A stretch of 64,000 bases of DNA from Rhodospirillales bacterium (GCA_025352665.1 JANXSM010000054.1:7027-71026); one strand, 5' to 3'. Positions 8,270 to 19,450 are shown, counted from the stretch's first letter. Notes: generated by a model from the letters alone, not told the origin. Translations and numbers: made by a program.

Positions 8270-8980
8270 TCAGCTTTCGAACAGGCTCCGCAGGGCCACA
8301 ACGTCGCGCAGCACCAGGTGGCCATCCTGAGTCGCAACCAGCCCGCTCTCGCGCCACACGCGCAGCTGCTTATTCACGCTTTCCCGCGTGCTGGCCACCA
8401 GGGTCGACAGGTCGCGCTGCGACAGCTTGAGCGAGATGCGCATGCCGCCCGGTCCCTCGGCGCCATAATCCTCGGCAAGCTTGACCAGGCGCAGTGCCAA
8501 TCGGGCCGGCAGGCCCAACAGCGAGATCTCCTCCAGCGCCACCGAGGTTTTGCGCAGCCGGTCGCACAATACCACCAGTAGGCGTTCCACCAGCCCCTCG
8601 TGGCGCACCAGGAAGGGCAGGAACACCCGCCGCTCCAGCACCATCAACGTGGTCGCCTCCGCCGCCACCGCGTCGGCACTGCGGGGCTTGCCGTCGAGCA
8701 GGGAGAACTCGCCGAAAATTTCGCCTGGCCCCATCAGGTTCAGCGTTACCTCGCGCCCATCGAGCGTGGAGGAGCCAACGCGCACCTGCCCCATCAGCAC
8801 CACCATCATGCTGGTGCCGGCGTCGCCCTTGGAAAAGATGATGGCGCCGCGCGGCACCCGATGGTCGGTTGAAACGGCGATCAGCTCGTCGAGCTCATGA
8901 TGCAGCATGTTTTGGAAGAACGGGCTGGTGAGCAACGCATCACGCTTCATCAGGTCGAGCCGGCGTGGGGGACGTGTCAT
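8270..8980 (-). CDS. Crp/Fnr-family transcriptional regulator (cNMP-binding domain plus HTH)
   Basis: 'FGEFSLLDGKPRSADAVA' cNMP-binding signature and a C-terminal HTH '..SQRDLSTLVASTRESVNKQL'. The ATG at 8980 forms ATGA with the radical SAM stop (8977-8979). An alternative ATG lies at 8950. Confidence 0.85.
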   Translation of the reverse strand: MTRPPRRLDLMKRDALLTSPFFQNMLHHELDELIAVSTDHRVPRGAIIFSKGDAGTSMMVVLMGQVRVGSSTLDGREVTLNLMGPGEIFGEFSLLDGKPRSADAVAAEATTLMVLERRVFLPFLVRHEGLVERLLVVLCDRLRKTSVALEEISLLGLPARLALRLVKLAEDYGAEGPGGMRISLKLSQRDLSTLVASTRESVNKQLRVWRESGLVATQDGHLVLRDVVALRSLFES

Positions 8981-10968
8981 GCCGGCAGGGCGACCCTGTG
9001 ACCAGCCGCGGGGGCAGGCACCTGCTCCATGCCGAGGGTGTCGCTGAACGGGCGACCGTGACCCGCGCGGATGTCGCGCCACGCCGGCGCCCGGCGAAAC
9101 CCAGGCTGGCGCAGCGGCAGGGCCAGCAACTGGTCGCCCTCCGCCAGAATCAGACCGCGCCCGTCAAGCCAGGCCGCGGCTTCGCGCAGCGCTGGCTCGG
9201 CATAACGCGCGCTCGCGCCGGGATCGCTGGGGCGTTCACCTAGCTCGGCCAGCACATGGCGCCACGATACGGGCTGCCACGCCAGCGCGAGCAAGGCCGC
9301 GCAGGGGTTTCCGGCGGCGAGGTGAAGCACTTCGGCAGGCCAACCCCAGCGCTCGTCATGCACGACCAGCCCGTCAGCTTCCTGCTCAACCCACAGCGCA
9401 CTCTCGTCGTGATGGGCAGACCAGTTGGCACATTCCCCCGCGGCCTCGGCGGTATAGGCGTCGAGCTGGTCGAGTTCGGTGGAGTGCATGGTGAAATGAT
9501 AACCCAGCCGAGCGATCGCCGCAGCATCCCATGGATAGATGTGGCGATAGGCGGCCAGTGGCGTGAGCGTCACGCCGAAGCGCTCGGGTTCGTGGTAGTA
9601 CGGGCTGAACCGATCCGCGCGGGCACGCTGGAAGGTCGCCGGCGGCTGCAGATGGCGCAGGCGGGGGATCACCGCAGCCGTCGCCGCGTAGTTGGCCGCG
9701 GTCTCGCCGGGAAAGCCGGACAGCGCCAGCCATTCCACATAAACACCCGCCTCGGCGGCAAGCTTCAGGGCGGCCACGTTCTGCAGCCCCGTCACCCCCT
9801 TGCGCATCAGCTTCAACAGCCCGGTATCCAGCGCCTCGATCCCCGCCTGCACCTTGCGAATCCCCGCGCGCGACAGCGCGGACCAGTGCCAGGGTCGCAA
9901 ATTGGACTTGGTTTCGTAGAATACCAACAGATCGAGCCGGCTTGCCTCCAGCCGCGGAATGAAATCGTCGAAATAGCGCATCTCGAGGATGTTGTCGGCG
10001 TTGGCCACGTCGCGCGTGCCGTGGCGGCGTACCAGATAGGCCAACTCGTCGAAGGCACGCTTCTGGCTTTTGGCGCGATACGCCATGGTGACGCCATTCA
10101 GCCCGCAGAAGGTGCAGTGGTGCTTGGCCCCCCACCAGCATCCGCGCGAGGTCTCGAACACCACGGCGGGTGGATGCCGCAGGCCAAGGCCGAGCGCTGC
10201 GTGCTGATCAAAGAAGGCATCGAAATCCGGCACCGGCAGGCTGTCCATGTCCTGCACCGCGTCGGTCGAGGCGACCGGCACGATGGTCTCGAATGCCTCG
10301 CGCACGACCATGCCGGGAATGCCCAAAAGCGAGGCGCCGGAGATCAGCCGCCGCACCAGCTCGGGAAACGCGCGATCGCCCTCGCCCTGGCACACCGCGT
10401 CCAGAAACGGATACTTGCGGTGCAACTCAGCACCCATTTCGTCCTGGCAGTTGGCCCCACCCATCACGATGAACATGTCCGGATGGTCCTGGCGGATCCG
10501 CCGCGCCAGGGCGAGCGAGGCCATGGTCTGCTGAAACGAGGTGGTGAAACCGACCAGGCGGTAGCGGCTCCAGTCCACGCTCCGGTAACAGCGCTCTATA
10601 AAAGCTGCAGCCCCAGCGCGCACCGCCAGGAACGCCATCAGCCGGTGCGGATCGTGGAACTCGGGAAAATCGGCTGCGAACACCTCGGTCAGAAACGCCA
10701 TGCCCAGCGCCTCGGGCGCTTCATGCGCCACACCCGCAAAAGCCCATTCGCCGACCTGGGCCTTGTAATAGCGCACGTCCGTCAGCGCCGCGTTGGCGTC
10801 GTCACCGATCTCGGCCACGTGGTCGAGCGAGAAATAGCGCACTTCGCACGCAAGCCCCGCCGCCTCAACCGCAGGTTTCAGCAGCCCGAGCGCAAGATTT
10901 GGGTAGTACGCCAGTGAGAACGGCATCGAGACAAGCAGCGCGCCCGGCCCGACTGCCGCCCCGCTCAC
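8977..10968 (-). CDS. B12-binding-domain radical SAM enzyme, RiPP-maturation type (TIGR03975-like, from memory)
   Basis: N-terminal cobalamin-binding-like region '..FIVMGGANCQDEMG..CQGEGDRAFPELV'. Cluster motif 'ETSRGCWWGAKHHCTFCGLNG'. GTG at 10968 (or ATG at 10926) chosen so that the gene does not overlap the upstream peptide gene. Confidence 0.8.
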   Translation of the reverse strand: MSGAAVGPGALLVSMPFSLAYYPNLALGLLKPAVEAAGLACEVRYFSLDHVAEIGDDANAALTDVRYYKAQVGEWAFAGVAHEAPEALGMAFLTEVFAADFPEFHDPHRLMAFLAVRAGAAAFIERCYRSVDWSRYRLVGFTTSFQQTMASLALARRIRQDHPDMFIVMGGANCQDEMGAELHRKYPFLDAVCQGEGDRAFPELVRRLISGASLLGIPGMVVREAFETIVPVASTDAVQDMDSLPVPDFDAFFDQHAALGLGLRHPPAVVFETSRGCWWGAKHHCTFCGLNGVTMAYRAKSQKRAFDELAYLVRRHGTRDVANADNILEMRYFDDFIPRLEASRLDLLVFYETKSNLRPWHWSALSRAGIRKVQAGIEALDTGLLKLMRKGVTGLQNVAALKLAAEAGVYVEWLALSGFPGETAANYAATAAVIPRLRHLQPPATFQRARADRFSPYYHEPERFGVTLTPLAAYRHIYPWDAAAIARLGYHFTMHSTELDQLDAYTAEAAGECANWSAHHDESALWVEQEADGLVVHDERWGWPAEVLHLAAGNPCAALLALAWQPVSWRHVLAELGERPSDPGASARYAEPALREAAAWLDGRGLILAEGDQLLALPLRQPGFRRAPAWRDIRAGHGRPFSDTLGMEQVPAPAAGHRVALPA

Positions 10969-10999: not shown

Positions 11000-11287
11000 T
11001 CAGCACTCCGCCATGCCAAGCGAAGGATCTGGATGCGCCGGCTTGAAGGCGGTCGCAGCGGCCTCGAAGTCGGCACCCTTGAGCGAGGTGAAGAACGCCA
11101 CCACCTCGTCGTGCGGCACGTAGTTCAGCTTCGCCAGCGTTGCGGCGACATCTTCGAACATCAACTTGCGCAGCTCAGGGTTCTTGATCAGCAGCGTCAG
11201 GATCGGCCCCATGTCCTTGAGGTTGATCTCCTGCGGCTTGCCGATCGGCGTACCGGGATAGGCGGGGTTGAAATGCGTATCAGACAT
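11000..11287 (-). CDS. putative RiPP precursor / NHLP-clan-like small protein (95 aa)
   Basis: ATG at 11287 is preceded by the strong SD AAGGGAGA. High GC3. The helical leader-like segment 'LLIKNPELRKLMFEDVAATLAKLNYVPHDEVVAFF' resembles nitrile-hydratase-like leader peptides. C-terminus is '..HPDPSLGMAEC'. Lies 31 nt upstream of the radical SAM gene. Confidence 0.55.
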   Translation of the reverse strand: MSDTHFNPAYPGTPIGKPQEINLKDMGPILTLLIKNPELRKLMFEDVAATLAKLNYVPHDEVVAFFTSLKGADFEAAATAFKPAHPDPSLGMAEC

Positions 11288-11410
11288 CGGGGTCTCCCTT
11301 TCTGTAGACAGGCCGGCGCATCGAGGCCCGACAAGACGTTTTGATCCGACACCAACGCTAGGCGGTTCGCGGCATCAGGTAAAACCCACAGGTGGTACAC
11401 AGAATTGTGT

Positions 11411-14400
11411 TCACGATATTGAAGCGCTGTCCAGCCGTACCCGCAATATCGCCAGCGCGGCTTGCTCCGGCGCCAGACCGAGCTCCCGCGCCAGCAGGTC
11501 GCAGGCACGCGCAAAATCGTGGGCCTGGCTGTGGCGCAAGCCGGTCGCGTGGGCTTCCGCCAGCAGGCGCAGCGCCAGCACCTCGGCCGGTCGATAGCCA
11601 TGATGGCGGGCCAATGACAGGCTCTCCTCCAGCTGTGCCAGCGCCATGTCCTCGGCCCCCGCAACCAGTTGGGCATGGCCCAGCGCCAGGCCGCACCAAA
11701 CGATGAGCAGCACCATGTTGGGGCCCCGCGCGGTTTCCATCGCCTCGTCGAGCAGCGCCAGCGCCTCCTGCGCACGGCCCACCAACGCATAGGCGCGGCC
11801 GAGATAACGCGCGACGGACGGCACCAGCAGACCGATCCCTCCGGCCCGACATGAGGCGAGTGCGGCCTCCAGCTGGTCCACCGCAGCGCCGCCGTCGCCA
11901 CGCTGCAGCTCGGCAAACCCCGAAGCCAGCCGCGCATAGGTGACGTCGTACGGCTTGATGGTTTCGTTGGCGATCGCCTGCGCCTCGGCCGCGAGTGCGA
12001 AGGCCGGCTCGAACGCCCCCGTCATCGCGTAGGTCTTGGACAGGCAGGACAGCAGCAGCACCGAGGCGGTACCGGTCGTGCCGGTGTTGTGTAGCCGCAT
12101 CGGGCCGCGCACCAGCGTCAGGCATTCCTCCATCGTCGCGGCCGCATCGGCGAAGTCGCCGCGCATCCAATGGGTCTGCCCCAGCGCATAGGCGGCACTC
12201 ACCTGCGCTGCCGGGTCGCCCAGCGTGCGCGCCGCGCGCTGCGCCCGCCTTCCAGCGTCCACCGCCCGATCGAGGCTGCCCTGGATGGACAGAAAGATGC
12301 AGCGGCTGATGTCGATCTGCGCCAGCCGCGCGAAATCGCCGAGCTGCTCGGCCATCTCGCTCGCCTCGTCGACGATCTGCAGCACGCGCGGGATCTGCGA
12401 GGTGGGGCCAAGCGCCACCCGCAGCCCGAGCCGGATGTCGATGCCCACGGCAATCGTCTTGCGCGTCTCGGGCACCTGGGCCAGAGCGTGCAACGCGCCA
12501 TCGAAGAAGCGGATCGCCTCCACCCAGGCGGAACGCGCATTGGCGCGATGGCCGGCGCGCTCCAGCAAGGCGGCCGCCCGGTCCCACACCTCGCCACGCT
12601 GGGCATGCTCGGCCAGCACCTCGGTCAGTTCGTCGGCGCGGTCAGCGGCCAGGTTCTCCATCACCGAAAGCACCCGCGCATGCAGCTCGCGCCGCTGCCG
12701 GCGCAACATGCCTTCGTAGGCGACAGTCTGCGTCAACGCATGCTTGAACGTGTAATCGGTGCCCGCCAGCCGGCTGATCTCATAAATGAACTCGGCGGCC
12801 TGCAGCGCCACCAGGTTGGTGGTCAGCAGCGCCTCCGTCAGGTCGGCCACACTGGCCAGGATGTCGCGCGGAATGTCGCGCCCGATCACGGCCGCCACCT
12901 GCAGCAGCCGGCGCGGCTCGCTGGTCAGCTGGTCGATACGATTGGCCAGGATGGCCTGCACGTTGGGCGGGATCTGCACCTCGGTCAGGTCGCGCGTCAG
13001 CCGCAGCCGCAGCCGCGGCATGGCCAGGGTGGGCTGCTCCACCACCACCACGCCCTGCTCGATCAGCGCCCGCGACAGCTCCTCGATGAACAGCGGCGTG
13101 CCGTCGGCCTGCGCCACGATGCGCGCGCGCAGCGCCGCCAGCTCCGGACCGCTGCCGAGCAGCTCCGTCAGCAGCGCCTCGGCAGCCGCCGGCGCCAACG
13201 GGCCAAGATGCATGGCCAGGCAATAGCTGCGATTGCCGCGGCTGGCCCAGGCCGGCCGCCGCTCCGGCCGCGTGGTCACCACGAGCAACACCCGGGCCCC
13301 GCCCAGCGCCTCCACCAGCGCTTCCAGCAGCAGTTCGCTCTGCGGGTCGGCCCAGTGCAGGTCCTCCACCACCAGCAGCATCGGGCGCACCGCACTGGCG
13401 CGCAGCATCACCAGCCGCAGCGCCGGCAGCATGCGCTCGCGCCGCACGTCGGCCGACAGGTTGGACCAGGCGGGATCGATCACCGGCAGATCCAGCAGGC
13501 TCTGCAGCGGCGCCGCCTCGGCCGGGTCCGAAAGCCCCAGCAGCAGCAGCGCCTGGCCCAGCTTGCGGGCCACGTCCGCGCGCCCGTCGCGCCGTTCCAC
13601 CCCAAGCCAAGCGCGCAGGATATCGGCAGCCAGTCGATACGGCGTGCCCTCGCCATGGCTGATCGCCGCCGCCCGGATCACGCTCCAGGCACCAGTGTTG
13701 GGCCGCATCAGGAACTCGTGCACCAGACGTGACTTGCCCACGCCGGCATCGGCGGTCAGCGTCACCACCTGGCCGCGGCCGAGCCCGACCCGCCCCAGCG
13801 TCGTCTCCAGCAGCCGCAGCTCCGAATCCCGGCCGACGAAGCCGGTCATCGCCTGACGCTGCGAACGCACGTCCCACGCCGGCCGCTCATACGCCGAAAT
13901 CAGCCGGAACACATCGACGGGCCCCGCGATCCCCGCCACCACCTGCGGGCCGAGATCCTCCAGATCCACCGTGCCATGCGCCAAAAGTGCTGTGCGCCCA
14001 GTCAGCCGCACCGTGCCGGGTACCGCACTGGTCTCCATCCGGTGCGCCAGATGCACGGTCACCCCCACCGCGTCATAGTCTGACGGATCCTGGCCCACCG
14101 AGCGGATCACCACATCGCCGGAATTCAGACCCACCCGCACCTCGAGCTCGGCATGCGGAGCTGCCACCCCCACCAGACGCGTCTCGGCGGCAACGGCTGC
14201 CACGATCGCCTGCGCCGCGAGACAGGCCCGGACCGCATGGTCCTCGGTCGCCACCGGGGCGCCGAACAGCGCCATGATGCCGTCGCCCTGCACCCGGTTG
14301 ACGGTGCCGCCGAACTTCTGCACCGCCAGCGCCATCGCATGCACCGCAGGATCGAGCAGGTTCATCGCCTGCTCGGGATCCAGCGCCTCGATCAGCGAGG

Positions 14401-14668
14401 TGGAGCCGCGGATATCGGCGAACAGCACCGTCACCACCTTGCGCTCGCCCTCGTCGATAAGGCGGAACATCGCGGCACTGGCGGCGGGCGGCGGCGGCAC
14501 CAGCTCGGGCGAAGCGGCGGAAAGGCCGGCGCCGCACTGGCTGCAGAACCGCGCCCCCGCCCTGGCCACAGCGCCACACCCGGCGCATGCCAGGGGGAAG
14601 GCTGTCCCACAGTGATCGCAGAAACGGCTCAGGTCGGGATTGTCCGCCTGGCAATGACGACACTGCAT
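11411..14668 (-). CDS. double zinc-ribbon / class III adenylate-guanylate cyclase / P-loop STAND ATPase / TPR multidomain protein
   Basis: 'CRHCQ..FCDHCG..CAGCG..FCSQCG'. Cyclase motifs 'VVTVLFADIRGST' and 'VQGDGIMALFGAP'. Walker A 'ADAGVGKS'. Long helical-repeat C-terminus. ATG at 14668 within track ORF 11411..14770. Confidence 0.85.
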   Translation of the reverse strand: MQCRHCQADNPDLSRFCDHCGTAFPLACAGCGAVARAGARFCSQCGAGLSAASPELVPPPPAASAAMFRLIDEGERKVVTVLFADIRGSTSLIEALDPEQAMNLLDPAVHAMALAVQKFGGTVNRVQGDGIMALFGAPVATEDHAVRACLAAQAIVAAVAAETRLVGVAAPHAELEVRVGLNSGDVVIRSVGQDPSDYDAVGVTVHLAHRMETSAVPGTVRLTGRTALLAHGTVDLEDLGPQVVAGIAGPVDVFRLISAYERPAWDVRSQRQAMTGFVGRDSELRLLETTLGRVGLGRGQVVTLTADAGVGKSRLVHEFLMRPNTGAWSVIRAAAISHGEGTPYRLAADILRAWLGVERRDGRADVARKLGQALLLLGLSDPAEAAPLQSLLDLPVIDPAWSNLSADVRRERMLPALRLVMLRASAVRPMLLVVEDLHWADPQSELLLEALVEALGGARVLLVVTTRPERRPAWASRGNRSYCLAMHLGPLAPAAAEALLTELLGSGPELAALRARIVAQADGTPLFIEELSRALIEQGVVVVEQPTLAMPRLRLRLTRDLTEVQIPPNVQAILANRIDQLTSEPRRLLQVAAVIGRDIPRDILASVADLTEALLTTNLVALQAAEFIYEISRLAGTDYTFKHALTQTVAYEGMLRRQRRELHARVLSVMENLAADRADELTEVLAEHAQRGEVWDRAAALLERAGHRANARSAWVEAIRFFDGALHALAQVPETRKTIAVGIDIRLGLRVALGPTSQIPRVLQIVDEASEMAEQLGDFARLAQIDISRCIFLSIQGSLDRAVDAGRRAQRAARTLGDPAAQVSAAYALGQTHWMRGDFADAAATMEECLTLVRGPMRLHNTGTTGTASVLLLSCLSKTYAMTGAFEPAFALAAEAQAIANETIKPYDVTYARLASGFAELQRGDGGAAVDQLEAALASCRAGGIGLLVPSVARYLGRAYALVGRAQEALALLDEAMETARGPNMVLLIVWCGLALGHAQLVAGAEDMALAQLEESLSLARHHGYRPAEVLALRLLAEAHATGLRHSQAHDFARACDLLARELGLAPEQAALAILRVRLDSASIS

Positions 14669-14760: not shown

Positions 14761-16419
14761 ATGCGCACATCGCGTCAGTCCAACCCGGACGCCTGGGGCA
14801 TCGATTGGCACCAGGCTGAAACCCTGTCCGCGTTCCAGGACCGTGTGCCGAACCTCGAACCGGCCGAGCGGCTGCTGATCCTGGACACGGCCGCCCAGGT
14901 GCTGGCCGATCACTATGCCCACCTGCCGCACAAGTCCCGCAGCCAGGGCACCGATCCCGTCGCCCGGCTGCAGGCCCTGCGCACCCAGGAAGCCGATGCC
15001 GACGCCAACCCCATGGGCGTGCCCCTCGGGACGCCCGATTTCCACGAGGCGGTGTGCCAGATCTTCGCCGAGCTGCACGATCTGCACACGCTGTACATCC
15101 TGCCGGATCCCTACGCCGGCATGGTCGCCTTCCTGCCGTTCCAGTTGGGATTGGCCACGGGCGAAGGTGACCCGACCCTCATCGTCACCCATGTGCTCCC
15201 AGGCTTCCACCACACCGGCTTCATCCCGGGGGCCACAGTGCTGAGCTGGAGCGGCATCAAGGTCGAGCGCACCATCCGTCGCCTCGCCTTGAGTTCTGGC
15301 GGCGCCAACAGAGCCGCGGCCAGCGCCCGCGCCCTGGCCTTACTCACCCAGCGCCCCATGCTGCGCATGCCGCCGCCGGACGCCGAATGGGTGGAACTGG
15401 AATACCTCTCGCCCGCCACCACCAAGCCCGCCCGGCTGCGCGTCGCCTGGCGCGTGGCGCCGCTGCCCCCGCCAGACCAGGCCGCACCGCCGCACGCCAG
15501 CGCCATCGATCCGGAAGGGGCGGCCCTGCAGCAGCATCGCAAGCAGAGCTACGCGCCCCATGTCCTGCGCGCCGAACGCGCCGGCGCCGTGCCGCAGCAC
15601 CCGGCGCCCGCCGCCACGCATCCATTTCACCACGAGATCGCGACCAGCTTTCCCAACGTGCGCGCGTGGATCGGCGAGGTCGACGCAAAACGCTTCGGCG
15701 TGCTGCGCCTGCGTAACTTCGTGGTCGACCAGGATCTGTTCATCGACGAAATGGGCCGCCTGCTCTCCCTCATGCCGCCAGACGGGCTGGTGATCGATCT
15801 GCGCGACAATCCCGGCGGCCTCGTTCCCGCGGCGGAGCGCCTGCTGGCGCTGCTGACCGACACGGTGCGCCCGGTGAAGGTCGCCTTCCTGGCAACCCAG
15901 GCCAATCTGGAGCTGTGCCAGCACCACGCGGCGGTCCACGCGGACAGCGAACTGATCCCCTGGATCGTCCCGCTGCAGGACGCGATCGCGAACCGGCGGC
16001 CCTGGTCCGAAGCCACCGAAATGACCCCGCCAGGCGACTGCGCCGGCCCACGGGTCTACACCGGCCCCGTCGTGCTGATCACCAGCGGCCGCACCTATTC
16101 CGCCGCCGACATCTTCACCGCCGGGTTTCGCGACCAGAACATCGGCCGGATCCTGGGCGTGGACGCCAACACAGGCGCCGGCGGCGCCAACATGTGGACG
16201 CACGCCAAGATCAACGAGATTGCCGGCACCGGTATCGCCCTGCCGCACAACGCCGAACTCCGCGTGGCCATCCGCCGCGTGCTGCGGAACAACGGACAGG
16301 TTCTGGAAGAGGCCGGCGTCCCGCCCGACCAGGTCCACGCGCTCACCCGCGCCGATCTGTTGGAAGGCGACTGCGACCTGCTTCGCACGGCCGCGGGACT
16401 GCTGCATCCTGGCCCGTAA
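14761..16419 (+). CDS. S41-family (C-terminal processing/tail-specific type) peptidase-like protein, no evident signal peptide
   Basis: 'LVIDLRDNPGG' and 'ITSGRTYSAADIFTAGF' (nucleophile Ser505 of the track ORF). ATG at 14761 within track ORF 14587..16419. Divergent from the cyclase gene. Confidence 0.75.
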   Translation: MRTSRQSNPDAWGIDWHQAETLSAFQDRVPNLEPAERLLILDTAAQVLADHYAHLPHKSRSQGTDPVARLQALRTQEADADANPMGVPLGTPDFHEAVCQIFAELHDLHTLYILPDPYAGMVAFLPFQLGLATGEGDPTLIVTHVLPGFHHTGFIPGATVLSWSGIKVERTIRRLALSSGGANRAAASARALALLTQRPMLRMPPPDAEWVELEYLSPATTKPARLRVAWRVAPLPPPDQAAPPHASAIDPEGAALQQHRKQSYAPHVLRAERAGAVPQHPAPAATHPFHHEIATSFPNVRAWIGEVDAKRFGVLRLRNFVVDQDLFIDEMGRLLSLMPPDGLVIDLRDNPGGLVPAAERLLALLTDTVRPVKVAFLATQANLELCQHHAAVHADSELIPWIVPLQDAIANRRPWSEATEMTPPGDCAGPRVYTGPVVLITSGRTYSAADIFTAGFRDQNIGRILGVDANTGAGGANMWTHAKINEIAGTGIALPHNAELRVAIRRVLRNNGQVLEEAGVPPDQVHALTRADLLEGDCDLLRTAAGLLHPGP

Positions 16420-16492: not shown

Positions 16493-17152
16493 TCAAGCCG
16501 GTTCAAAAAATCCGAAGTCCCCATGATCCTCCGCCCGTGTCCCAACCGAAGGGTGCGCGTTCGGCGCCACCGCCAGCCCGGGAAACCCAATGGGCGCAGA
16601 GCCCGGCTCGCGCGCGCCATCAGCATCGCCATGATCCACCGCGACTACTTCCACCACGGTTTCCGCGACCACCGCCAGAACCAAGACCGGAGCCACGACC
16701 GGCGCCAACAATTCCGGTTCAAGAGCCAGCGCCCGGCACAGCGGCCGCAGCAGCCTGGCCAACCGCGGCGACGCCCCGATCAGCGCCACCATCTCCGGAT
16801 CCTGCAGCACCACCCTCATCTGGCTGGCATAATTCGCCGCCTCATACGGCACCGCCACAAGCAGCCAGGCAAACCCGCGCGGCAATCGCGCGGCCCCCGG
16901 CGCCTCCACCCTGGGCCCCCGCGCCACACCCGGCCGACCCCCGCGGCCATGTCCCACCCGAACCCGACCCGCCCGGATCGCCGTCACCAGCGCCAGCACC
17001 TCGCGCTCGAACCGCCGCAGTCGCGCGCAGACCAGCGCGATCACCAGCACCGGCAGCCGCCGCCCCGCAAACCGCGCCGCCACCGCCCGATACAGCGCAT
17101 CGAGCACGAACGAGAAGCGCTCCGTTGCGGAAAGGGTGAGGAACAGGTTCAT
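16493..17152 (-). CDS. hypothetical protein (Ala/Arg-rich, function unknown)
   Basis: Track ORF 16493..17158 starts at TTG; the first ATG is at 17152. GC3 bias is consistent with coding. No recognisable motif. Confidence 0.5.
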   Translation of the reverse strand: MNLFLTLSATERFSFVLDALYRAVAARFAGRRLPVLVIALVCARLRRFEREVLALVTAIRAGRVRVGHGRGGRPGVARGPRVEAPGAARLPRGFAWLLVAVPYEAANYASQMRVVLQDPEMVALIGASPRLARLLRPLCRALALEPELLAPVVAPVLVLAVVAETVVEVVAVDHGDADGAREPGSAPIGFPGLAVAPNAHPSVGTRAEDHGDFGFFEPA

Positions 17153-17317
17153 ATACAAAACATGAACTCAGCCGCCGTCTGGCGCAATACGTACGATCCC
17201 TTACTGGCCAGGACGCTCTTCGAATACCGCACGGCCACCACGAGATCGTCACGCCACTGACGGGGTCATAGAGATCCTCCCAGTCAACCAACCGTGCGAA
17301 CCCCGTCAGATAATATC

Positions 17318-17358
17318 AGCCCGCCTTGATGCTGACTCTTCCAGCATCAAGGCGGGCT
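17318..17358. terminator. perfect 17-bp stem / 7-nt loop hairpin
   Basis: AGCCCGCCTTGATGCTG-ACTCTTC-CAGCATCAAGGCGGGCT. On the minus strand it is followed by the A/T-rich TGATATTATC. Confidence 0.4.
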
Positions 17359-17407
17359 GGTATCGCGCGCCAGGCTGGCCGGCGGCAGCGCGCAAAATAT
17401 GACTCGT

Positions 17408-17454
17408 GCCAAACCGTCGTTGACACATCCGTCATGTGTCAACGACGGTTTGGC
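17408..17454. terminator. perfect 20-bp stem / 7-nt loop hairpin overlapping the esterase stop codon
   Basis: GCCAAACCGTCGTTGACACA-TCCGTCA-TGTGTCAACGACGGTTTGGC. The stop codon of the minus-strand esterase (17439-17441) lies in the second arm. Confidence 0.5.
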
Positions 17455-18449
17455 ATGAGTCCCCAAAACTCCACGATTTCCTGCGCCGCGGAAATCGGCG
17501 TCGGTGCCACCGTCGAATGCGGCGTCAACGCCCCGGCCGCGGGATAGCCATGCCCCATGCCGTCCACCAACCATAGCTCGACGCAAGGCCGGCCCTGGTC
17601 GTCGCGCCAGACTGTGTGCTGCGCGCCGGCCCGCGGTTCCGCGACCGGTTTGAGGTCGCGCCCCGCAAGCGCCGTCCATTGCGCGACCAGTTCATGCGCA
17701 TTGCCGACCGCCACCACCTGGTCGGCCGTGCCATGCCACACCGACAGCTGCGGCAGCGGCCCGGCATAGCCCACAGGGCCCAGCGCACGCGCCCTGGCCG
17801 CCCACAGCGCGCCGGTCAGATCGCTGCCATGGCCTGCCATCCGCGTCATGGCGCCGACCACGCCCGAGGCGGCACCCGCAGGCAGCCCCGCCACGATCGC
17901 CCCGCCCGCGAAGCACTCCGGATAGGCCGACAGCAGGCACGCCGCCATCGCCCCCCCGGCGGACAGGCCGGTGACGAACACCCGCGACGGATCGCAGCGA
18001 TGCAGCGCGATCGCGCCCATCACCATGGCGTGGATCGAGGCGACCTCCCCGTGGTCGCGCATGATGTCCTTGGTCTGGTACCAGTTGAAGCAGCGATGGC
18101 GATTGTTGTCCTGCACCTGGCGCGGCATCAGCAGCACCATGCCGAGCCGATCCGCCAGCACCCGCCAGCCGCTCGCCTCCGCCAACGCCAGCGGCTCCTG
18201 TTCGCAGCCATGCAGCACCACAACCAAGGGTGCCCCGCGGCGCAGGCCGGGCGGCACATGCACGATCTGCTCGAGCTGGCCGGGATTGGCCGGCGCTGGC
18301 GCCACCCGCCCAGGTTTCGCCCGTCCCCGCGCAGGCCGCACCGGCTTGGGGTTCAGCATCTGCAGGATCCGCGGCCCGACCAGCATCGCGCTCAGCCGCA
18401 TGAGGCTGCGGCTGGAGCGCATCATCGAAGTCAGGGAGCGTGGCGCCAT
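17439..18449 (-). CDS. PHB-depolymerase-family esterase (LpqC-like alpha/beta hydrolase)
   Basis: 'PLVVVLHGCEQEP', nucleophile elbow 'GLSAGGAMA', '..SVWHGTADQVV..'. The start is ambiguous (18575, 18449, 18425 or 18422). Confidence 0.75.
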   Translation of the reverse strand: MAPRSLTSMMRSSRSLMRLSAMLVGPRILQMLNPKPVRPARGRAKPGRVAPAPANPGQLEQIVHVPPGLRRGAPLVVVLHGCEQEPLALAEASGWRVLADRLGMVLLMPRQVQDNNRHRCFNWYQTKDIMRDHGEVASIHAMVMGAIALHRCDPSRVFVTGLSAGGAMAACLLSAYPECFAGGAIVAGLPAGAASGVVGAMTRMAGHGSDLTGALWAARARALGPVGYAGPLPQLSVWHGTADQVVAVGNAHELVAQWTALAGRDLKPVAEPRAGAQHTVWRDDQGRPCVELWLVDGMGHGYPAAGALTPHSTVAPTPISAAQEIVEFWGLMPNRR

Positions 18450-18661
18450 AAAGCTGATCCTATTGTGCGGTGCAACATAAAGGACCTCAACGCGCCCGTG
18501 CTCCGATCCGCCGCAGCACTTGCGCGATGGCTGCCATGACGCTCGCCGTGCAACCAATTCGGACATGGCCACCACCGCCGGCGCAGCGCGCTTGCCAGAA
18601 CGGTTGCTTCAACGCAAAACCCCTGGGCTGCCGCAATCGCTGCGCCCGAGGAGAGAGCTGC

Positions 18662-19450
18662 ATGTCCGATGAGACCCCGCACGTGAACGGAACCGCGCCC
18701 CCGGCCGCCACCCCGGCGGCTGCGCCTGCAACGCCGCTGCCGCTGTTCTTCACCGGCGTGGTCGGCGTCAACCCGACCCAGCACAGCGGTCTCAGGCTCG
18801 ATCGCAGCAAGGGTTTCGGCTTCGCCGCCCACGCCCAATCGATCCCGCTCGGCCTCGGCGAGATGGAGATCGCCTGCCAGCACTACCCGATCGTGTTCAC
18901 CGTCGGCCCCGCCCCCACGCCAGTGGCGTTGATGGGCCTGAAGGAGACCACCAACCCCTTCGTCGCCTCCGACGGCACCTGGCGCAACGACAGTTATGTG
19001 CCGGCCTATGTCCGCGCCTTCCCGTTCATTTTCGTGGAAGACCAGGCCACCTCCACTCTTTACGTCGGCATGGACCCCGCGGCCGCGGCGATCTCGACCG
19101 AATCGGGCGCCGCCATGTTCGAGGACGGCAAGCCCAGCCCGGCCCTGTCGGAAGCGATCAACTTCTGCGCCGCCTTCCGCGACAATCTCAACGCCGGCAT
19201 CGCGTTCGCCAAGGCGCTGGATGACGCAGGCCTGCTGGAGGAGGAGGAGGCCACCATCAACTTCACCGCCGGCGGCGTCGCCCGCGTGCGCGGCTTCAAG
19301 ATCCTGAAAGCCGACCGGCTCGACAAGGTGAGCGACGAAACCTTCATCGAATGGCGCCGACGCGGCTGGATCGGCCCGCTCTACGCCCATCTGCACAGCA
19401 CCGGCCGCTGGGCGCGTCTGGTGGAAATGTCGGTCCCCCCGACCACCTGA
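18662..19450 (+). CDS. SapC-family protein
   Basis: ATG at 18662 within track ORF 18470..19450. '..PLFFTGVVGVNPTQHSGLRL..YPIVF..YVPAYVRAFPF' matches the SapC-family pattern. Confidence 0.7.
   Translation: MSDETPHVNGTAPPAATPAAAPATPLPLFFTGVVGVNPTQHSGLRLDRSKGFGFAAHAQSIPLGLGEMEIACQHYPIVFTVGPAPTPVALMGLKETTNPFVASDGTWRNDSYVPAYVRAFPFIFVEDQATSTLYVGMDPAAAAISTESGAAMFEDGKPSPALSEAINFCAAFRDNLNAGIAFAKALDDAGLLEEEEATINFTAGGVARVRGFKILKADRLDKVSDETFIEWRRRGWIGPLYAHLHSTGRWARLVEMSVPPTT

Follow-up and report, generated by a model that had tools for sequence, protein, structure and literature searches.

The DNA analyzed here is a 64,000-nt stretch from a Rhodospirillales bacterium, referred to below as the window. 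At positions 11000 to 11287 on the minus strand (stop codon included), it contains a small gene whose 95-aa product we consider a candidate precursor of the NHLP clan, on the basis of the open reading frame, its homologues, and the NF038399 family model. A gene encoding a double zinc ribbon/class III cyclase/AAA_16 (STAND)/TPR protein (11411 to 14668, minus strand; Pfam assignments) is located directly upstream. The peptide gene is followed by a gene for a B12-binding radical SAM (rSAM) enzyme of the TIGR03975 type (8977 to 10968, minus strand), which starts at GTG 10968 or ATG 10926, and by a gene for a Crp/Fnr-family cNMP-binding regulator (8270 to 8980, minus strand; cNMP_binding and HTH_Crp_2 domains), whose ATG overlaps the stop codon of the rSAM gene (ATGA). 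Together, the genes for the peptide, the rSAM enzyme, and the Crp regulator have the appearance of a single operon. Divergent from the cyclase gene, a gene at 14761 to 16419 on the plus strand encodes a cytoplasmic CPAF-like S41 peptidase (Peptidase_S41, 1.3e-19).

The frame of the 95-aa gene runs from an ATG at 11287-11285, before which the open frame has no other start codon, to a TGA stop codon at 11002-11000, and its 95 codons encode the product MSDTHFNPAYPGTPIGKPQEINLKDMGPILTLLIKNPELRKLMFEDVAATLAKLNYVPHDEVVAFFTSLKGADFEAAATAFKPAHPDPSLGMAEC, which ends in ...HPDPSLGMAEC. These features were found exactly as described in the first-pass annotation. Reading of the upstream sequence revealed a strong Shine-Dalgarno sequence, AAGGGAGA (11293 to 11300, minus strand), 5 nt before the ATG. 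Between genomes, the tail codons vary synonymously (GCG, GCC, or GCT for Ala, GAG or GAA for Glu, and CTT, CTG, or CTC for Leu), and the DNA just past the stop codon is not conserved and is unrelated; the conservation of the tail is therefore at the protein level. The 95-aa frame is a real, conserved gene.

The family of the 95-aa protein is rare. Among several billion proteins, approximately 30 homologues of 81-100 aa were found, mostly from uncultured Acetobacteraceae/Rhodospirillales and soil metagenomes; beyond the genomes of the genus, they comprise approximately 20 clusters from metagenome-assembled genomes (MAGs) and metagenomes. In each of six further genomes of the genus, an intact homologue (81-100 aa) is found at the equivalent position. 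In our first search, which covered 61 related genomes, the peptide was detected in its own genome, in 6 of 11 congeners, and in none of the 49 genomes of other genera. A profile search of genome contigs with a 9-sequence alignment returned only the five known same-genus MAG loci.

A search of the Pfam families gave no match to the 95-aa protein, PF14407 included, and its sole NCBIfam match was to NF038399, "Os1348 family NHLP clan protein" (E 0.0021), at 18.1 bits, below the cut-off of 40 bits. TIGR03793 (NHLP leader; cut-off 50.9 bits) did not match it. No curated model takes in the 95-aa protein above its cut-off. The wider family was then judged from an alignment of 25 sequences (A3): NF038399 matched 21 of the 25 members at E <= 0.01 (best E 2.6e-12), PF14407 (Frankia_peptide) matched eight (best E 7.6e-8) with at most 33 bits, all below its gathering score of 48 bits, and TIGR03793 matched three weakly (best E 0.0031). 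When the family profile was compared with PDB sequences, only a non-significant match to the nitrile hydratase alpha subunit was obtained (E 0.36).

An AlphaFold2 model of the 95-aa protein built with alignment A3 (mean pLDDT 81.5) predicted a folded, leader-like helical domain of the LigA-like/NHLP type at residues 20-81 (11045 to 11230, minus strand). Residues 11-80 had pLDDT values of 87-93, with helices at residues 23-35, 37-45, 47-53, 60-71, and 74-80, and residues 81-95 were predicted to be without secondary structure, their pLDDT dropping from 63 to 43. The model thus has a compact helical body and a short flexible C-terminal tail, as in the Os1348 family. A Foldseek search of the PDB gave nothing statistically significant; the only good superposition was with Os1348 itself (6lk7; TM 0.75 normalised by target, rmsd 2.1 A, 60 columns), at an E-value of 4.9. 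LigA and the borosin precursor SonA were also in the Foldseek list, which agrees with the ECOD curation that unites LigA, the nitrile hydratase alpha subunit, Nif11, and Frankia_peptide in one "LigA-like" group (PMC12353581).

By transitive homology and predicted fold, and not by any curated cut-off, the 95-aa protein belongs to the NHLP clan, in which it is best placed as a divergent offshoot of the Os1348/Frankia_peptide part. It is not a TIGR03793 member: the HMM does not match it, and it has neither a GG motif nor a hypervariable core. The helical character that had been proposed for the N-terminal two-thirds was borne out by the modeled helices, and the proposal of an NHLP-like leader is supported by transitive homology (the NF038399 and PF14407 matches in the family) together with the fold match to Os1348.

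The flexible tail, KPAHPDPSLGMAEC (residues 82-95; 11003 to 11044, minus strand), is the candidate core. It has low pLDDT, and an (H)DP motif followed by approximately seven residues recurs in the family. As had been noted earlier, no Gly-Gly or Gly-Ala motif precedes it, and the protein contains a single Cys, its last residue. The mean column entropy in A3 was 2.14 bits for the N-terminal segment (residues 1-19), 1.56 bits for the helical body (residues 20-81), 1.85 bits for the linker (residues 82-90), and 0.93 bits for G91-M92-A93-E94 (11006 to 11017, minus strand), which is, by column entropy and the synonymous variation of its codons, the most conserved block of the protein. C95 (11003 to 11005, minus strand), with 2.37 bits, is the most variable position of the tail. 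Cys is kept there in approximately one-third of the members, and the others have V, M, I, Y, A, G, L, or F; the last residue differs even between peptides of approximately 90% identity, which end in GMAEC in G004 and G008 and in GMAEM in G001 and G002.

The emphasis that the first-pass annotation had placed on the C-terminal Cys is not supported, since this residue occupies the variable position after a nearly invariant G-M-A-E block. We considered the terminal Cys as the reactive residue (thioether or heterocycle formation, or decarboxylation) and rejected it, given the Gly, Ala, Val, Met, Ile, Leu, Phe, and Tyr in close relatives; because Gly occurs at position 95, a chemistry shared by the family cannot take place on a side chain there.

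An alignment of homologues had also been expected to reveal a hypervariable core, but none was found within the clade that carries GMAE, where only the last residue varies; the putative core is frozen within this Acetobacteraceae-type clade. A conserved leader combined with a differing core was seen when remote branches were compared with one another, and likewise for the tandem paralogues of a soil contig (L024/L025), which keep the leader and end in RDGWAKHSEG and RDPPKPSVTDD, respectively. Other relatives have the variant tails NMAEC, NMGEY, WFGEAI, and WFGEAFD, and the homologue from another genus (G024) ends in HDPIKLAGDM. In nearly all family tails, a D-(P/A/S/G) motif precedes a stretch of approximately seven residues, and two to four positions from the end there is an acidic one; this acidic residue is the only tail feature retained in remote branches. 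Beyond the GMAE clade, the helical body is still recognisable while the tail changes. Since the body is kept and the tails differ between branches and paralogues, the family as a whole behaves as a conserved leader with a short variable core.

The two copies on the soil contig represent a tandem duplication of the peptide gene (L024, 3680-4430; L025, 5679-6429). Between them lies an 81-aa ORF in which a duplicated rSAM N-terminus is fused to a duplicated cyclase C-terminus (…LAVLPDRSGPGSGSRR); this ORF is a scar left when the cyclase-end/peptide/rSAM-start junction underwent segmental duplication.

The distribution of the rSAM gene closely followed that of the peptide gene. An orthologous rSAM (66-74% identity) was present in exactly the same 7 of the 61 genomes as the peptide, and the one extra match (47% identity), in G024, is preceded by its own 83-aa peptide homologue, which the first search had overlooked. 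In every locus seen (the own genome, G001, G002, G004, G005, G008, G011, G024, and the metagenomic loci L019, L020, and L022-L026), the rSAM gene begins 8-160 nt past the stop codon of the peptide gene. The gene is thus encoded beside its putative maturase and co-inherited with it, as is typical of RiPP precursors, and the tie to the rSAM enzyme that had been suggested for it held throughout, with constant adjacency and an identical phyletic pattern. The first-pass annotation had stated that uniform conservation from end to end, combined with occurrence without any maturase, would speak against a precursor. Conservation from end to end was found within the clade, but homologues without the maturase were never seen, the co-occurrence of peptide and rSAM extending to G024.

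The own genome encodes one TIGR03975 enzyme above the cut-off, and no canonical NHLP or Nif11 precursor was found in it; an alternative substrate for the rSAM enzyme is therefore lacking. The one weak TIGR03793 match in this genome lies within a 237-aa frame that is probably the nitrile hydratase alpha subunit itself. A second B12-rSAM gene of the own genome is located on another contig (L030; G000:C24:2215-3045, plus strand) and is TIGR03975-like with 96 bits, below the cut-off.

The rSAM enzyme matched TIGR03975, "RiPP maturation radical SAM C-methyltransferase," with 592.1 bits (cut-off 281.85) over positions 2-606 of the 606-position model, and Pfam detected Radical_SAM and N-terminal B12-binding domains. 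PoyB and PoyC themselves presumably score as TIGR03975. The Cx7Cx2C motif of the enzyme, CWWGAKHHCTFC, is identical in the L024 homologue. This type of motif is the unconventional motif of PoyB/PoyC and the bottromycin methyltransferases, which catalyze C-beta methylation of peptide residues (PMC5682303). The second-best NCBIfam match of the enzyme was ApyD, with 69 bits, where the cut-off is 750; in ApyA, the conserved C-terminal pentapeptide GYLYD is beta-methylated by ApyD at its penultimate residue (Tyr) (PMC11117315). Reactions other than methylation are also catalyzed by B12-rSAM enzymes (PMC11117315). L019, a distant version of the module, has an additional B12-binding radical SAM gene of smaller size (509 aa; 12108-13637, minus strand) immediately following the Crp gene; the window has no counterpart of it.

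The order cyclase-peptide-rSAM was found in every locus with enough flanking sequence (G011 (L010), G001, L019, L020, L022-L026, and G024), the cyclase gene being cut off by the contig end in L022 and L023. The position of the cyclase gene upstream of the peptide gene is conserved in L010, L019, L020, L024-L026, and L028. The cyclase protein is TIGR03903-like (258 bits, below the cut-off), is without the kinase part, and is similar to the cyclase portion of "TOMM system kinase/cyclase" proteins. The Crp gene follows the rSAM gene in the own genome, G011 (L010), L019, and G001, where a 239-aa ORF is assigned by position; it sits elsewhere in L026 and is absent from L020, L022, and L024. The spacer between the cyclase and peptide genes contains promoter-like elements (11355 to 11401, minus strand), namely TGTGTAC (11401-11395), which is invariant in six genomes, and, approximately 41 nt downstream, a conserved TAGCGT-like element (TAGCGT, 11360-11355). 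These elements may represent an activator site, perhaps for Crp, and a -10 box for the peptide-rSAM-crp operon; such an arrangement would be in keeping with a promoter that depends on an activator, for which the co-transcribed Crp regulator is a possibility.

A homologue of the S41 peptidase was present in all six GMAE-type loci with enough flanking sequence, and in neither of the two remote branches that were inspected was the gene identified. The best NCBIfam match of the peptidase was CPAF, and it has no signal peptide. A single-sequence search of the PDB with the peptidase found nothing; with the family profile, the best match was CPAF (1e-10), and His109 and Ser447 aligned with the NDFH and FSCADFF segments of CPAF, which we take to be its catalytic positions. 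The Ser of YSA(A/C)D and the His of DLHT were invariant in six homologues, and LEE was also kept; a Ser/Lys dyad context was absent from the window protein and from the L010, L011, L019, L020, and L026 homologues. With a probable active site of the Ser/His type, the peptidase resembles a functional cytoplasmic protease of the CPAF kind more than a dead enzyme. Apart from a weak match in one homologue, the searches showed no PDZ domain. The G011 peptidase (L010, 4422-6302, minus strand) carries approximately nine tandem PAPAL repeats inserted in its N-terminal domain, which are without counterpart in the other homologues. Across the loci compared, no conserved exporter and no C39 or C1A protease was found. 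SapC-family and PHB-esterase-like genes lie beside the S41 gene, and the region at 16493-19450 of the window matches L020 1655-3622; this shared flank places the module at a syntenic chromosomal site in at least one more distant relative, with no obvious mobile element.

Taken as a whole, these findings are best explained if the 95-aa protein is the substrate (a precursor or scaffold peptide) of the adjacent B12-dependent rSAM enzyme, which we regard as probable. The folded LigA-like domain (residues ~20-80) would dock on the rSAM enzyme as the recognition leader, so that the flexible tail (residues 82-95) could enter the active site. The tail would bear a very short, fixed core, consisting of the (H)DP motif and the seven residues SLGMAEC. 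Because the enzyme is a TIGR03975 member with a Cx7Cx2C motif, methyl transfer is expected, most likely C-methylation of an unactivated sp3 carbon of an invariant tail residue. Our first guess for the site would be Glu94, given the precedent of ApyD at a penultimate residue and the acidic near-end residue that alone is kept in remote branches; Met92 and Ala93 are also possible. The CPAF-like S41 peptidase is a candidate for leader removal, possibly at the conserved (H)DP motif, and the cyclase-STAND-TPR protein and the Crp regulator would put the operon under cyclic-nucleotide control. Several observations weigh against the substrate reading: the 95-aa protein falls below the cut-offs of all leader models, the Foldseek E-value for Os1348 is not significant, LigA-like domains are also found in non-substrate partner proteins, a hypervariable core, a GG site, and a conserved exporter are lacking, B12-rSAM enzymes have other reactions besides methylation, and the S41 gene was missing from the two remote branches.

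Between the two options that the first-pass annotation had left side by side, a very short, unusual core or a small partner protein, the former fits better, since within the clade no part is more conserved than the disordered tail, which nevertheless changes between remote branches and tandem paralogues. The latter fits less well, and we consider it unlikely. In that case, the 95-aa protein would be a non-substrate partner or recognition subunit of the rSAM enzyme, a free LigA-like domain that activates it, chaperones it, or presents another substrate to it, the role that the TglI N-terminal domain plays for TglH. Such a role is conceivable because, in the ECOD curation, LigA-like domains occur in RiPP leaders and also in non-substrate partner proteins of RiPP enzymes such as TglI (PMC12353581), and it would accord with a compact, confidently predicted fold and with conservation from end to end within the clade. 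However, conservation peaks in the disordered C-terminal tetrad and not in the fold, and remote branches and tandem paralogues retain the fold and alter only the tail, as leader/core precursors do. Moreover, no other candidate substrate was found in the locus or genome, and Os1348, the nearest relative that has been characterised, is regarded as a precursor.

A second alternative is that the protein is a small regulator of the cyclase/Crp circuit, its tail being a recognition tag for the S41 protease (of the C-terminal-processing type), with the rSAM enzyme acting elsewhere. S41 peptidases typically read C-terminal tails, the peptidase gene is co-conserved in the GMAE-type loci, and signalling proteins dominate the module. 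Against this, the link to the rSAM gene is tighter than that to the peptidase gene, the rSAM gene being adjacent even where no S41 gene was found; the peptidase is CPAF-like and, apart from the one weak match, showed no PDZ domain; and the NHLP-clan homology indicates RiPP biology. We therefore judge this alternative very improbable. Finally, spurious ORFs are common in high-GC genomes, and many overlapping ones were listed in the high-GC window, but the idea that the 95-aa frame is itself a chance, unexpressed one appears effectively refuted by its conservation, with approximately 30 intact homologues of the same length and position and synonymous substitutions in the tail, in addition to the strong Shine-Dalgarno sequence and the confidently predicted fold.

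If the 95-aa protein is indeed the rSAM substrate, a more speculative extension, which we think has only a slim chance of being correct, is that the modified C-terminal oligopeptide is a signal and not an antibiotic. The CPAF-like peptidase would free it, and the cyclase-STAND protein would sense it with its TPR domain; the cNMP output of that protein would then act through Crp on the TGTGTAC element of the same operon. The module would then form a self-contained loop from RiPP to second messenger to transcription, and its specificity would be set by the fast-evolving last residue (C, M, or V at approximately 90% peptide identity). In other peptide signalling systems, specificity is set by pherotypes.

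A literature search found no paper characterising this peptide-rSAM module, and no S41 entry was found among the matching passages of a 2023 review of RiPP leader proteases. If the substrate reading is correct, the product would be either a very small peptide bearing C-methylation or a small modified protein, in both cases with a conserved structure and nearer to a cofactor or signal than to a bacteriocin, and the module would offer a compact one-substrate, one-enzyme system for the recognition of structured leaders by B12-rSAM methylases.

By analogy with known systems, the module may work like a proteusin/NHLP pathway pared down to a single enzyme and a core of seven residues. NHLP-type leaders, like TIGR03975 enzymes, have been described from the proteusins, whose hypervariable cores are long and heavily modified. 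The present protein shares with the polytheonamide precursor a long, structured, nitrile-hydratase-like leader, and its putative maturase has the Cx7Cx2C motif of PoyB/PoyC. NHLP precursors, however, have a Gly-Gly (or GA) cleavage motif followed by a hypervariable Cys/Ser/Thr-rich core (PMC2887384), whereas here there is no GG motif, the core would comprise approximately 7 residues instead of approximately 50 and is conserved, TIGR03793 is unmatched, and there is no epimerase, C1A/C39 protease, or exporter. What would be new relative to the proteusins is a folded leader carrying a core of only approximately seven residues that is fixed across species, a single B12-rSAM as the only tailoring enzyme, and a cytoplasmic CPAF-like S41 peptidase and a cyclase/Crp pair in place of the usual GG-protease and exporter.

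The module may also be compared with the conserved-core scaffolds ApyA, PqqA, and MftA, which it resembles by analogy. Like the present pair, ApyA/ApyD combines a B12-rSAM with a precursor that has a conserved C-terminal motif (PMC11117315), but ApyD has an RRE domain, the ApyA leader is short and unstructured, and that pathway needs an MNIO, a P450, and a methyltransferase, all absent here. PqqA/PqqE and MftA/MftC combine, as the present module may, one precursor whose C-terminal motif is invariant with an rSAM maturase and a dedicated peptidase (PMC3023750), and their product, too, is expected to be identical across species. In those systems, however, the rSAM enzymes are of the SPASM type and not the B12 type, the short leaders are read by RRE proteins, the chemistry is different, and there is no folded leader. 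The predicted RiPP precursors of the Franean1_4349 type (PF14407, Frankia_peptide) share the LigA-like/NHLP helical core, but all family matches to this model are below 48 bits and the 95-aa protein itself is unmatched.

The closest counterpart is Os1348 of Pseudomonas sp. Os17, an 85-aa protein that is treated as a precursor on genetic grounds and in whose crystal structure (6lk7) residues 2-79 are ordered and the last six are invisible (PMC7726476). Its family provides the best HMM match (NF038399) and its structure the best-superposing PDB fold for the 95-aa protein. Both proteins are small, with a folded helical NHLP-clan body and no Gly-Gly site, and Os1348, with approximately six flexible C-terminal residues, is likewise encoded by the first gene of a modification cluster. 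The two differ in that the tail sequences are unrelated, the 95-aa protein scores 18 bits against the family cut-off of 40, and the Os1348 cluster encodes an acetyltransferase, an HEXXH peptidase, and a SagB-type dehydrogenase and has no rSAM, cyclase, or Crp gene (PMC7726476).
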